This document shows, piece after piece, positions 33,701-37,844 of a DNA stretch of 64,000 nucleotides. The position numbers were made by a program, and so were the translations under genes. Origin of the DNA: an uncultured Acidobacteriota bacterium. Lineage in GTDB: Bacteria; Acidobacteriota; Vicinamibacteria; Vicinamibacterales; UBA2999. Position 1 is the first letter of the stretch. Each line of letters opens with the position of its first letter. Location: the NCBI GenBank assembly GCA_963734095.1, contig CAVTGK010000010.1:12656-76655 (forward strand). The letters are read 5' to 3'. The notes beneath the pieces were generated by a model. The model saw nothing but the letters and a program-made list of their open reading frames with translations, made no database searches and had not been told where the DNA came from.

Positions 33701-33934
33701 TCGTAGGTCGGGTCAGGCGTTCAGGGACGTTCCCACTCTTAGAGCGTGTAACAAAACCTCCGAAACATGCTCCTGGCGGCTACCGGTTAGCACGTCGTAG
33801 AGCCGAATTTTCATCTTTGTTGCCCGAGTTGCCGCGGACCTCACGTCCTGCAAACGCAAATCATCACGGCCGCGCCGGCAAACGGCGTCGCTGGTTCACC
33901 TGCGAGCATAGTCGAGGGAAAGGTCTACAACCGA

Positions 33935-36632
33935 TCATTGGTTCTCGGGCGTCACCACGTCCATGATCCAGATGTCGCCGAGATCGACGCTCCAGGTGAG
34001 GTACAGATCGCGTTCGCCAACGGCCAAGTCTAGGCTGCCCAAATTACCTTGCCTGCCTGAAAAACGTGTCACCCGCCGCTCCTTGCCGTCGGCGAGCGTG
34101 AATTCCCAAATGTCATTACACCCTCGCAGTCGGAACGTGCCGGGTGGAAAGCATGGGGGTTCGAAATAAACGCGCTTGCCATCTGGTGACCACCGGAAGA
34201 AATACGCAGGACCCTGAGTCACCCGTCGTGGAGGTCCCCCTGAGGGAGGCACCCACCATAGACGGTAGATGCCATCGTCAAGATTCGTAGAGAAAGCCAA
34301 CTGTTTCCCATCCGGGGACCATTGTGGAAAGAAACTCCATGGCGATCCCGTTACCACCTGGCTGACCTCGCCGCCCGTGGCGGGCATCACAAAGATGCCT
34401 CCTCCAGCCCTGGTGGAGGAGAACGCGATGTTCTGGTTGTCAGGAGACCATGAGGGGATACTGGTCCTCCCCTTCACCCGTGGTCAGCTGAACTGCCGGC
34501 CCTCCGTCTGCTGGGACCACCCAGATCTTGCGATCCCCACTTCTATAGGAAAAGAACGCGATCTGCTTTCCATCTGGCGATAGGCGTGGACCGAAATCCG
34601 GAGCTCGGTCGCTGGTTATCTGTCTCGGATCGTTCCCGTGAATCGGCAGGCTCCAGATGTTTTGAATCCCGCCTCGATCGGAGTCGACAAGCAGGTGTCC
34701 TGCGTCCGGCAGGAGATCGAGCTGGGTGATCCTCGCGTAGTCGAACGTGAGTTGCTCGGCGTCAGCCCAGACCGCCTCGCGATCTTCGCGAATGGGCACG
34801 CGCCACACGTTGGCCACGATGCGACCTTTCGAATAGGCCAACTTCCGCCCATCGGGAGTGAAGGCCGCCCGCCGCATGTCAATCCCCACGGTGATCGGCA
34901 CCGCCTCGCCTTCGGGCCGTCCGTCCGTCGAGATGTGTTGTTGCCACAGGTCCATGCTCCCTTTGCGGTTGGAGACGAAGAAGAGCGTGCGTCCGTCCCT
35001 GGACCACTTCGGGCTCCAATCGCTCGATATTCCTCCGGTGATGGAGAATGCTTGTGCGTCCGAGGCGCGCAGCAGCCAGATGCGCGAGGCCACCGATGCA
35101 TCGTTGGGGGCGCGCACGTAGGCGAAGAGGCTTCTGTCGGGGGACCAGCTCAGATCAAAGCGATTGCCTCCCCCGCCTGGAATCCGCATGCGACGCGACG
35201 CGCGGGTTCTCAGCGTCACGATTTCGATGAACGTCGCCTCCGGGATACACCGCGACGTACGCAAGCTCTGCCCCGTCCGTCGACCACGCTGGACTGGCAA
35301 ATGCCTGCACATCTGCAGATGCACGTGGCGACATCCGGGTCGCCTGCCCTCCGATCGCAGGGATCACATAGATGCCCCCGCCGTCTCGGTCCGACACAAA
35401 CGCGATCTGATTTCCGTCGGGCGACCAGGCCGGCTCTATGTCGAGTTCTTTGTGATCGGCGGTGAGGTTGACTGCAGGTCCTCCGGTCGGCTGTGCCACC
35501 CAGATATCCGCGTTGCCGCTCTGGTCCGAGTCGTACGCGATGCGTCCACCATCCGGCGACCACGTCGGATGATTCTCGAGACCGGCAGCGGACGTGACTT
35601 GGACCGGGTTCTCGACGCGAGGCACGATGACCTGCGGACGGTTTCGTTGACCTCAAGAGGCCGACGCCAACGAGGAGTAGTAGTCCAGCAGCAGCCACGA
35701 TCAGCAAGCCCACGTTCGTTGATGTCAGGCGAGTTTTTCGAATGGGTTGCGATGAGCCGAGAAGCTCTCCGGATTCGAGCTCTCGTCTGAGCTCGCTCAG
35801 CTCGTTCCGGATGTCGAGCGCGCTCTGGACGCGCTTCGAGACGTCTTTCGAAAGGCAGCGTCGCACTAACCTCGATAGCTCGCGAGGAATCCCCGAACGA
35901 ACCTCGGAAATTGACGGCGGGACATCCTTGATGATCGAGGAGATACGTCGGAAGGCGTGGGTCCCTCGAATGGCGGACGTCCCGTCAACATCTCATAGAA
36001 GACGATCCCCAGCGAGAAGATGTCGGAGCGCGCATCGATAGTGTCTCCACGCGCCTGCTCCGGAGACATGTACTTGCACGTGCCAACGATGACTCCCTGC
36101 TCGGTCTGTGCCGCCGTGAGGAGATTGCTGGCCGCGCCGGCCCCGGCGAGTCGGTCGCTGGCCTGTGCAAGGCCGAAGTCGAGCACTTTCACGCGCCCAT
36201 CGAGATCGACCATCACGTTTCCGGGCTTCAGATCGCGATGCACGATGCCCTGGGCGTGAGCGGCGGCGACGGCATCGGCAAGGGCGACCGCGATATCGAA
36301 AAACCTCTCCAGCGCGAACCCCTGCCTGGGCAAGAGCGCGGCGAGGGTGGCTCCCTTTACCAGTTCCATCGTGATGAAATGGACGCCGTCGACCGCTTCT
36401 ACCGAGTGAACCGTGACGATGTTGGGGTGATTGAGCGCAGCGATGGCCCGCGCTTCTCGTTCAAAACGCGCGCGACCCAATTCGCTGTCGGCCAGCTCCG
36501 GAGGCAGAATCTTGAGGGCAATTTCGCGATTCAGCTTCGTATCGCGCGCCCGATACACTTCGCCCATCCCGCCGGCCCCAGGACAGAGAGGATTTCGTAC
36601 GGTCCAAGGCGCGTGCCAGCGGACAGGGACAT
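33935..36632 (-). CDS. Ser/Thr protein kinase fused to TolB-like PD40/WD40 beta-propeller repeats; frame-disrupted (>=5 shifts)
   Basis: [19 protein letters not shown] (shift in a C4 run at 36576-36579), then [33 protein letters not shown]. A TM segment, then repeated WSPDG...IAF/LAF propeller blades down to the stop at 33935. Confidence 0.85.
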
Positions 36633-36711
36633 GAGAGTCGAGGGCGATTGTAGCGACGTTGCCCCCTTGCTGCAAAGAGAAAGGACACCCCCTCAGGCTC
36701 GCTGCCCAGCG

Positions 36712-37507
36712 CTTTCGCAGCGACTGCCAGCAAATCAGCGCGCACCCGAGCGAGAGGAACGCCTCGTGGATGTCGGCCCGCTTGTCATACCGCACGCGCA
36801 GGCGGCGAAACTGGTTGAGCCAGGCAAACGTCCGCTCCACGACCCACCGCCACCGGCCCAGGCCACTCCCGTGCGCGGTGCGACGCATGGCCAGCAAGGG
36901 CACGATGTGACGAGTCCGGAGACCGCGCCGAATGCGCGGCCGCGTCGTAGCCGCGATCCCCGAGCACACAGTCCGGCCGCTGCCGCGGTCGCCCCCGTTC
37001 GCCGTGCAGCGGGGGAATCGCATCCACCAACGCCAGGGCTTCTTGCGAGTCGTTCCGGTTCGCGCCGGTCAGGCGAACCGCGAGCGGCACGCCCCGCCCG
37101 TCGCAGATCAGATGGCGCTTGCTCCCGCGCTTGGCCCGATCGGTGGGATTCGGACCGGTCTGGTCACCGCCGTACACCGCGCGGATGGAACAACTGTCCA
37201 CGACCGCCCGCGACCAATCAATCTGGTCGTCGCGCGCGAGCCAATCCAGCAGCGCAAAGTGGATCAGATCCCACACGCCCGCCTGTTGCCAATCGCGCAG
37301 GCGACGCCAGCACGTCATCCCCGACCCGCACCCGAGTTCCTGCGGGAGCATCTGCCAGGGAATACCGCTGCGAAGGACGAAGACAATGCCGGTGAGGCAC
37401 GCGCGATCCGAGACGCGCGGCCGCCCGCCTCTTGGCCGACGTGGTGGAATCGGCAAGAACGGTTCGACAAGATCCCACAACGGATCTGGAAGCAGCGCGG
37501 CGGCCAT
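36712..37507 (-). CDS. IS5-family DDE transposase; 1 frame shift near 36935, 3' end unclear
   Basis: MAAALLPDPLWDLVEPFLP..., GIPWQMLP, DSCSIRA, VLGDRGYDAAA then (shift) IRRGLRTRHIVPLLA..GSGLGRWRWVVERTFAWLNQFRRLRVRYDKRADIHEAFLSLGCALICWQSL. No stop is seen before the frame runs into the kinase gene. Confidence 0.85.
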
Positions 37508-37844
37508 ACCTGTTCACGCTACTTCGCCGACGAGGATCAGGTTTCGGAGGTTTTGTTACACGCTCTTAGGGCCTAACACTGGGTGTCACGCGCGATATTG
37601 CAGGCGAACGCCGCTGGAACCCTCGTCAAAATTTCTTCGCTGCTCGTCGTAAGCGGTCGGTACTCTTGAACGGCACTGGCGTACAGCAGGCCCGACAACC
37701 CCCAGCCGCTTGAAATAGTGCGAGCACGGCACTCGAAATACGTCGCCCGGCCCAAACAAGAGAAGTGCTGATGCAGACCCCACGAGACTTCCCCACAGTG
37801 TTGCTACCCAGACTTTAGGATTACGGGACCGGGGATAAAGCGCA

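Follow-up and report, generated by a model that had tools for sequence, protein, structure and literature searches.

A 3.8-kb unit in an uncultured Acidobacteriota bacterium that is probably an IS5-family transporter insertion sequence with a sensor-kinase passenger

Background

In the genome of an uncultured Acidobacteriota bacterium (Vicinamibacterales, UBA2999; NCBI GenBank assembly GCA_963734095.1), the argG and cupin genes are convergent, and their spacer holds a segment of 3,824 bp that includes, in the same orientation, the gene of an IS5-family transposase and the gene of a membrane Ser/Thr kinase, and that is closed at both ends by an inverted repeat (IR). The whole stretch that was analyzed, called here the window, comprises 64,000 nucleotides of contig CAVTGK010000010.1 (positions 12,656 to 76,655), and coordinates given without a locus name refer to it. 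An earlier note on this DNA had suggested either a transposable unit with a passenger or an insertion sequence (IS) that had lost its inner end; the evidence presented here supports both at once, given that the segment 33742-37565 is best read as one transposable unit, a transporter IS (tIS), in which a sensor kinase is enclosed by an IS5-family element that has no inner right end. We assign to this reading a probability of roughly 70%.

The tIS, the mobile insertion cassette (MIC) and the solo IR are established concepts. A tIS is an IS with passenger genes between its terminal repeats, a concept of ISfinder with examples in the IS1595 family, whereas MICs and MITEs (miniature inverted-repeat transposable elements) consist of IS ends without a transposase (PMC3129680). 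In a non-exhaustive literature search no report was found of an IS5-kinase tIS or of kinase-linked transposases in Acidobacteria; the search yielded only general tIS and MIC concepts and general surveys of acidobacterial mobile elements, and kinases are not mentioned in PMC3469429.

Results

Terminal repeats and target site

The features of the unit are collected in Table 1. Its ends are formed by two copies of the left terminal repeat (IRL), GAGCGTGTAACAAAACCTCCGAAAC, one next to the transposase gene and the other, inverted, beyond the kinase gene. The perfect 25/25 match between them, which the earlier note had described, is borne out by the sequence, and when up to three mismatches were tolerated these were the only two copies in the window, as compared with 0 in shuffled sequence; a repeat finder joined the pair and its flanks into 37 nt at 92% complementarity. 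The start of the repeat, GAG...CAAAAC, resembles the IR of ISBugl2. Between the transposase and kinase genes no IR-like sequence was detected in scans that allowed up to 3 mismatches in 25 nt or up to 4 in 16 nt, in agreement with what had been noted before. Both ends are abutted by TTA, and the target reconstructed from the two flanks, cactC-TTA-Gggcc, is consistent with the C-T(T/A)A-G target of the family that is described below. The presence of TTA at both sides had been correctly noted; alone, this match is weak evidence, because two independent insertions would agree about half the time.

Table 1. Features of the unit, of its surroundings and of related loci (window coordinates unless a locus is named)
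Feature	Position	Strand	Basis or comment
Left putative 3-bp target duplication, TTA	33739..33741		Fits family target C-T(T/A)A-G
Distal terminal IR, exact IRL-type copy	33742..33766	+	Likeness to IRL runs to 33774, 31/33 nt
Spacer of 168 nt, distal IR to kinase stop codon	33767..33934		
Kinase body: Ser/Thr kinase catalytic domain, transmembrane helix, PD40/TolB-like beta-propeller repeats	33935..36530	-	
First ~33 kinase codons, IS lineage, L002-like	36531..36632	-	Three-way alignment
Sigma-70-like promoter TTTGCA-18-TACAAT	36647..36676	-	Consensus match plus conservation; putative function
IS5-family transposase gene, DUF4096 + DDE_Tnp_1, NCBIfam NF033580 type	36693..37507	-	3' end placed by homology
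Leader, IRL to transposase start codon	37508..37540	-	Conserved across family copies
IRL	37541..37565	-	GAGCGTGTAACAAAACCTCCGAAAC
Right putative target duplication copy, TTA	37566..37568		
Imperfect ~36-nt direct repeat, left copy	33615..33651	+	Outside the transposon
Same direct repeat, right copy	37846..37881	+	L028 homology resumes
Alpha/beta-hydrolase cargo	L026		
VOC/glyoxalase gene cargo	L004, L020		
PadR regulator + FtsX/MacB-type permease cargo	L023		
'RE' motif	L015 1308-1340 and ~4095-4130; L026 4245-4277 and ~5330-5365; L023, L004, L020, L007, L011, L022, L001, L021, L024		

The transposase gene

The assignment of the transposase to the IS5 family, made in the earlier note, agrees with the profile searches: Pfam gave DUF4096 (9.6e-26) and DDE_Tnp_1, the latter in two frame pieces, and the intact orthologue of locus L002, 98% identical in amino acids (aa), scores 249 bits on the NCBIfam model NF033580 'IS5 family transposase', whose cutoff is 110. 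At the nucleotide level the IRL together with the transposase gene is 94% identical to L002 and L022. The transposases of this clade have 267-285 aa and are ISBugl2-like, of the NF033580 type; ISBugl2 is also the nearest relative with a name among the elements of annotated plasmids, with 60% aa identity across 94% of the transposase, and the naming of the IS family is based on NCBIfam and on PLSDB product names. The reading frame of the window copy is shifted by a 1-nt indel at ~36934 and its stop codon is lost through another at ~36711, which accounts for the absence of a clear stop in the earlier reading; the start at 37507 given there was right, whereas the end, put at about 36712, lies near 36693 by homology.

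In the window-type copies no inner right end is recognisable next to the transposase gene, with no IR-like sequence within the 60 nt that follow it, and conservation of the IS lineage stops ~45 nt past the transposase stop, in the block CTCCTTTGC. A 'vestigial' right repeat (IRR) at the stop codon, considered on the basis of an alignment with ISBugl2, was rejected as too weak to claim. The earlier note had also raised the case of a ~1-kb copy with an IR directly 3' of the transposase, and none was found among the close copies. Soil metagenomes are rich in this clade, whose protein clusters comprise as many as 549 member sequences, and the element is where most contigs break; one identical transposase (P0125) adjoins at least four different left flanks.

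The kinase gene, its promoter and its mosaic origin

The gene enclosed with the transposase encodes a Pkinase and PD40 protein of about 0.9 thousand aa and lies inside the IR pair at 36632-33935. The coordinates, the orientation and the domains given for it in the earlier note stand, but its description as complete does not, given that the gene reads in at least six frame segments and not as one open reading frame (ORF), with five 1-nt indels relative to its homologues at ~36578 (a deficit in a run of G), 35944, 35638, 35241 and 34458. Kinases of this type form a large soil-metagenome family, in which 7,949 of 8,000 scored candidates had E <= 1e-50.

Different parts of this gene have different relatives. 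Compared with L002, the window shows 93-97% identity from the IRL through the transposase, ~80% over the 60-nt spacer that follows, near identity in the first kinase codons, and only 50-64% from there on. The kinase body is 84% identical in nucleotides and ~80% in amino acids to kinases without an IS link found elsewhere (L029/P0002, and P0001, which is the closest kinase homologue). With L029, a JGI contig whose kinase (P0002) is 79% identical, the window aligns at 84% nucleotide identity from 36575 to the stop codon, and no similarity between the two was found upstream of 36575. A three-way alignment places the switch of ancestry at ~36535-36520, in codons ~33-37, directly past the conserved P-loop codons and at a conserved stretch of 50 nt. 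By its sequence, the window copy is a recombinant in which a promoter and an N-terminus of the IS lineage are joined to the body of another paralog clade, since the 5' part is of the L002 type and the remainder of the L029 type. The homology to the L029 region ends at the kinase stop codon and does not cover the 168-nt spacer; beyond the IR this spacer has no match in any fetched locus or in the rest of the window, and both immediate flanks of the unit are without a match in the fetched loci.

In the L029/P0001 clade the start of the kinase differs: in the long form it is an N-terminal extension of ~75 aa (MDPERW..., MDPERWKLVSQLFHAALNRPP...) that is conserved in P0002, P0033 and other homologues of ~957 aa (L029 1940-2190), and the window recombinant has lost this extension of its kinase-body donor clade. 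Upstream of the kinase of this clade there is a conserved ORF of 179 aa that has no Pfam match and is not a transposase, and near P0001 there is also a pair formed by an ECF-sigma and a kinase-TPR gene.

Ahead of the kinase, the sigma-70-like promoter listed in Table 1 ends 14 nt before the ATG, and its -35 element falls within the last conserved block of the IS lineage, CTCCTTTGC. It is the only site of this kind in the region, where the mean expected by chance is 0.8, and the arrangement TTGCNN-N16-18-TA(C/G)AAT-N15-ATG recurs in L002, L016, L013 and L043. The conservation of this arrangement suggests that the kinase is driven by an IS-borne or hybrid promoter, and the predicted mRNA would be nearly leaderless. 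A terminator scan gave nothing relevant.

Composition and indel noise

The GC content is 0.58-0.64 in the kinase, 0.67-0.71 in the transposase and 0.60-0.67 in the flanks, and neither GC nor skew gave a signal of foreign origin; the impression that the segment is AT-richer than its surroundings is not reproduced by the GC profile. Outside the unit the indel noise is comparable, given that ilvD (38576-40413) is split in two frames and the DPP-IV gene (30261-32135) yields 624 aa, against 778 aa in the relative L028. Relative to L028 there are 16 gap openings in 9.6 kb to the left of the unit (~one per 600 nt) and 210 in 9.4 kb to the right. The frameshifts in the transposase and kinase genes are probably sequencing errors, in line with the overall level of indels in a long-read metagenome assembly, and because this noise is comparable outside the unit no pseudogenisation or gene decay is claimed.

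The argG-cupin locus in a relative

The sole relative found at this locus is L028, a 629-kb contig with a 100% identical ArgG, in which the cupin gene follows 193 bp downstream and then ilvD. Neither the transposase nor the kinase is present between these genes, so the kinase is not resident at the argG-cupin locus; the earlier note had considered that a relative might have the kinase there without the IS, and L028 lacks both. To the left of the unit (window 23974-33602) the window and L028 are 98.2% identical and to the right (37846-47951) 90-92%, so that on this latter side the two genomes cannot be called close. Either the window is much noisier in its right part or that part comes from a more divergent strain, and the insertion may coincide with a recombination or assembly boundary.

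Past the argG stop codon lies a tandem array of at least five copies of the 16-nt sequence GGCCGCTTCGCGGAAG (window 33534-33680; L028 11369-11560), and inverted copies of GGCCGCTTCGCGGAAG occur on the cupin side (37905-38009), so that a long imperfect palindrome is formed between the convergent genes; this palindrome predates the insertion, because it is also present in L028. For the cupin protein of the window, a look-up returned no entry.

Units of the same architecture in other Acidobacteriota

When 185,579 species genomes were scanned with the initial 20 nt of the IR, 27 loci were obtained, all of them in metagenome-assembled genomes (MAGs) of Acidobacteriota and many in Vicinamibacteria. 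The order IRL, transposase or its remnant, and co-oriented kinase is found at 12 independent loci (the window, W, and L002, L007, L008, L009, L012, L013, L015, L016, L019, L030 and L043), and at nine of them (W, L002, L008, L012, L013, L015, L019, L030 and L043) a convergent distal IR with a T(T/A)A (TWA) flank lies beyond the kinase stop codon, in the eight sister units just past it. These nine units span 2.8-4.2 kb. In the sister units the distal end is of the IRR type, GAGSCTSTAACAAAACC, followed by CCGAC or TCGAAC. The distal IRs were detected with a scan for the terminal 16-17 nt and match 13-17 of 17 positions, and with up to 4 mismatches the scan found no TWA-flanked second IR at any other position or orientation. 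An idea formed from a 25-nt scan (up to 6 mismatches, one IR per locus), that the family lacks a second end, was rejected when the terminal scan found the distal IRs.

The triplet outside the repeat is TTA or TAA, about half each, at 33 of the 47 unique family ends, and the commonest base at position -4 is C, from which the family target C-T(T/A)A-G was deduced. Four further IR-bounded units, of 1.1-3.4 kb, carry other cargo (Table 1). The target triplets on both sides match in 10 of the 13 IR-bounded units, as compared with ~50% expected (binomial estimate, p ~0.05).

Evidence for movement comes from pairs of sister units. L043 (3.7 kb, IRL-transposase-kinase-IRR, TTA/TTA) and L013 (2.83 kb, IRL-kinase-IRR, TAA/TAA) are 95.7% identical over 2823 nt, and their homology stops at the repeats, with unrelated flanks on both sides; L013 looks like a form from which the transposase was deleted between CGAA(A)GC microhomologies at the IRL end and at the end of the transposase gene. 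The kinases of L030 and L016 share 87.5% identity over 2773 nt with unrelated left flanks, and L016 and L009 are likewise transposase-deleted forms. To judge from these pairs, sister transposase-kinase units demonstrably move as whole IR-to-IR pieces. The L013 cassette (3300-3311, 6146-6160) sits at the centre of the palindrome GCAGCCC-TAA-GGGCTGC, a hint that TWA located in hairpin loops, for instance those of terminators, may be preferred by the IS.

Among themselves, the full-length kinases linked to the IS share only 34-51% amino-acid identity, which had led us to consider the repeated independent joining of young ISs to old kinases. This was revised after a windowed comparison of L002, L030, L043, L008 and L012, in which nucleotide identity is 76-90% in the transposase, 66-84% in the kinase catalytic domain and 35-60% in the linker and PD40 half. 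Because the windowed identities fall in step, the transposase and the catalytic domain diverged together, and the sensor half diverged faster or was exchanged.

The linkage to the kinase marks a sub-clade and not the whole group, because more distant transposases (P0158, 81% aa; P0188, 76% aa) and P0125 have no co-oriented kinase downstream.

Other derivatives of the IS group

A sub-group of the IS carries, ~60 nt past the transposase stop, a motif of ~32 nt, 'RE', composed of GGAAAACACTRCGGCGT, ~10 variable nt and TAATC. The motif recurs in inverted form inside the right terminal repeat, 40-170 nt from it, and the cargo (kinase, hydrolase, PadR plus permease, or VOC genes) is placed between the two; window-type units are without this motif. 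The possibility that GGAAAACACTRCGGCGT + ~10 nt + TAA is the canonical right end of a ~940-bp IS was rejected, because the TAA is constant whatever the left flank, the last 10 nt vary, and an inverted copy is found inside the IRR arm; for the same constancy of the TAA the motif is regarded as internal and not as a terminus.

Miniature derivatives were also observed, of ~72 nt in L017 (331-~402) and at 1627-~1700 in L021. In L027 (6888-6923) the 36 nt consist of the IRL, the inverted inner half of the IRL and TAA, and in L001 (~3970-4211, ~240 nt) the first transposase codons are kept. In the P0125 contigs (L035-L042) at least 1.1-2.6 kb of downstream DNA, including an ORF of 148 aa, accompany the transposase behind at least four different left flanks; they represent either a larger cargo unit with its right end not found or short-read assembly paths through a repeat. 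L045 (4921-5847) and L053 (~4920-5950), with transposases of 81% and 76% aa identity, have the left repeats GAACTTCTAACAAAACC and TAGCCTCTAACAAAACC; no matching right repeat was found in these two loci, where a convergent gene starts 14-135 nt past the transposase, and the right end of the whole IS group may be atypical.

Discussion

Comparison with known elements

The unit of the window resembles a tIS in that it has one transposase gene, one pair of IRs, a gene inside that is foreign to transposition and a short target duplication, and in that whole sister units are found at different sites, the evidence for the window copy itself being indirect, since no second copy was found and L028 lacks the unit only imprecisely. 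It differs in its host family, which is IS5 of the ISBugl2-like NF033580 type; in its passenger, a membrane Ser/Thr kinase with a variable sensor half and a catalytic domain that has diverged along with the transposase; and in the two IRL-type ends and the recombinant passenger of the window copy.

Among IS5 elements, ISBugl2, from plasmids of Burkholderia glumae, is a compact IS of 914 bp with its IRR overlapping the transposase stop and a TTA flank; its IR is GAGGCCAGTTCAAAAAC, with the perfect 18-nt form AGAGGCCAGTTCAAAAAC. The start of the IR (GAGGCC...CAAAAAC), the TTA flank and a transposase 60% identical in amino acids are shared with the window unit, which in contrast has 3.8 kb and nothing IR-like at the transposase stop. 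Thus, of the features typical of IS5, the unit has DUF4096 plus DDE_Tnp_1, terminal IRs and a 3-bp TNA duplication, whereas the compact size of ~0.8-1.0 kb with the right IR at the transposase stop, as seen in ISBugl2, is absent.

With MICs the group shares the transposase-less L013, an IRL-promoter-kinase-IRR cassette of 2.83 kb flanked by TAA/TAA, but the window unit keeps its transposase gene and for that reason is the autonomous, or formerly autonomous, form and not a MIC. In compound transposons such as Tn5 and Tn10 the outer ends are likewise inverted and of one type, as both ends of the window unit are of the IRL type; nonetheless, the window unit is not a compound transposon, because it has a single IS copy and transposase, and its second end shares only 25 identical nt, or 33 nt with similarity.

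ISEcp1, of the IS1380 family, mobilises adjacent genes such as blaCTX-M by means of its IRL and a surrogate right end located downstream; it retains its own IRR, which is skipped only occasionally, and its surrogate ends are poor matches. The likeness lies in the transposase at the left end, the right boundary beyond downstream DNA, the outward promoter for the captured gene and the variable length of the units built on the same left module (2.8-4.2 kb with the kinase, 1.1-3.4 kb with other cargo). In contrast, window-type units have no inner IRR, their distal ends match 13-17 of 17 positions with a TWA flank, the transposase is of another family and the duplication has 3 bp.

A single unit and its alternatives

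Seen together with the anatomy of the unit, its absence from the locus of the relative, the recurrence of the architecture, the mobility of the sister units and the mosaic kinase, the window copy appears to have arrived as one piece. Several observations weigh against this. The distal repeat is of the IRL type, whereas every sister unit has the IRR type instead, and it could be what remains of an IS or MITE that inserted separately. No transposase lies near the closest relatives of the kinase body, no second copy of the window's own unit was found, and a search of metagenomes with a 22-mer of the distal junction gave a single match, a chance one inside a helicase gene. L028 does lack the unit, but the missing DNA comprises 4243 bp (~33603-37845) and not 3827, so that the stretches of ~110 nt and ~280 nt on either side of the unit likewise have no counterpart there and the site is not a precise empty site, and the exact empty-site 24-mer had 0 matches in the JGI metagenomes. 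This indel is bounded by the direct repeat of ~36 nt, and two histories fit it, a deletion between the direct repeats in the L028 lineage or a longer spacer in the window lineage. The TTA/TTA match is a ~1-in-2 event, the flanks mismatch in 3 of the 13 units (L002, L008 and L004), and both genes of the window copy are frameshifted. Moreover, the loci were sampled by the exact IRL 20-mer or by close transposase homologues and are biased towards the clade, and copies of P0125 (91% aa) are followed not by a co-oriented kinase but by a response-regulator fragment and dodecin and LysM genes.

Part of these observations would be explained by two events, an IS without a usable inner end upstream of the kinase and, downstream of it, a second IS or MITE that inserted independently and decayed to a 33-nt stump of the IRL, in which case the 3.8-kb segment as such would never have moved. 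We regard this as unlikely. A distal repeat of the IRL type that is alike over only 33 nt and unlike the sister IRR arms is what it predicts, the agreement of the two TTA flanks would be expected about half the time, mini-derivatives and solo ends are common (L017, L027, L001, L021), the nearest homologues of the kinase body have no IS link, and the boundaries of the L028 indel are off the repeats. It is opposed by the absence of a kinase between argG and cupin in L028 and by the promoter and the first ~33 kinase codons, which are IS-lineage sequence, so that the kinase must have joined the IS before, or apart from, the local insertion. Sister units of the same architecture are mobile as wholes, and the outer flanks reconstitute the family target C-TTA-G, which is also contrary to two separate events. 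Repeated insertion by preference upstream of Ser/Thr-kinase/PD40 genes, with the downstream IR-like sequences as old ends left by earlier waves, seems improbable. The low identity of the kinases among themselves (34-51% aa), as compared with transposases that are 85-98% identical to that of the window, could be understood in this way, and a TA(C/G)AAT box is also present ahead of the non-IS kinase in L029, while L015 and L007 have a transposase-kinase interval unlike the window type, with the 'RE' motif. Yet nucleotide identity declines in step in the transposase (76-90%) and in the catalytic domain (66-84%), which indicates an old physical linkage and not repeated arrival; window-type units have no right IS end between transposase and kinase, and in the pairs L043/L013 and L030/L016 the kinases move with the repeats.

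It is very improbable that in an error-rich long-read metagenome contig repeated IS or kinase sequence from different strains or loci was wrongly joined, giving rise to the transposase-kinase-repeat order or to the kinase mosaic. The 1-nt indels by which both genes of the unit, ilvD and the DPP-IV gene are interrupted, the contrast between 98.2% and 90-92% identity to L028 on the left and right sides with its 210 gap openings, and the position of the ancestry switch in a conserved 50-nt stretch would all be expected of such a contig. However, the order IRL-transposase-kinase-IR is found in independent assemblies (short-read JGI contigs from five samples, L030-L034; L050; and NCBI MAGs), both flanks of the unit come from one argG-cupin spacer, so that an erroneous assembly would have to bring two IS-related ends together at a single TTA, and a shared stretch of 50 nt is far below the length of a long read.

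A possible mechanism

If the segment is a single transposable unit, its right boundary would be the distal IR beyond the kinase, in place of the IR that normally abuts the transposase stop. The transposase would bind both terminal repeats and move everything between them, and insertion at a C-TWA-G target would duplicate T(T/A)A. The last conserved block of the IS provides a -35-like hexamer that, together with the TACAAT located 18 nt downstream, probably drives the kinase. The window copy would derive from an L002-type element, the source of its IRL, transposase, promoter and first ~33 kinase codons, and the remainder of the kinase would have come from a paralog clade that elsewhere is not linked to an IS.

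A bolder reading, which we consider unlikely, makes of the kinase not a passive cargo but a functional partner with which the transposase has long been associated, and of the element a means of shuffling the sensor-kinase paralogs of soil Acidobacteriota. According to it, the transposase and the catalytic domain would have stayed linked while the extracellular PD40 sensor half was diversified or swapped, and in the window copy the swap would have occurred by recombination past the P-loop codons.

Conclusions

As a transporter IS, the unit would be a clear natural case of an IS5-family element turned into a small transposon through the loss of its inner end, and IS annotation tools that expect an element of ~1 kb with paired repeats would miss it or set its bounds wrongly. 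It would illustrate concretely how large membrane sensor kinases can be copied across sites and genomes and re-promoted from an IS-borne -35 element, and L043 and L013, an autonomous unit and a transposase-less cassette, constitute a ready-made test pair. If the linkage between transposase and kinase is functional, the unit would represent a mobile element of a new, signal-linked kind, in which transposition or host physiology could couple to an external signal; the element could also serve to duplicate and reshuffle the sensor-kinase paralogs of soil Acidobacteriota.

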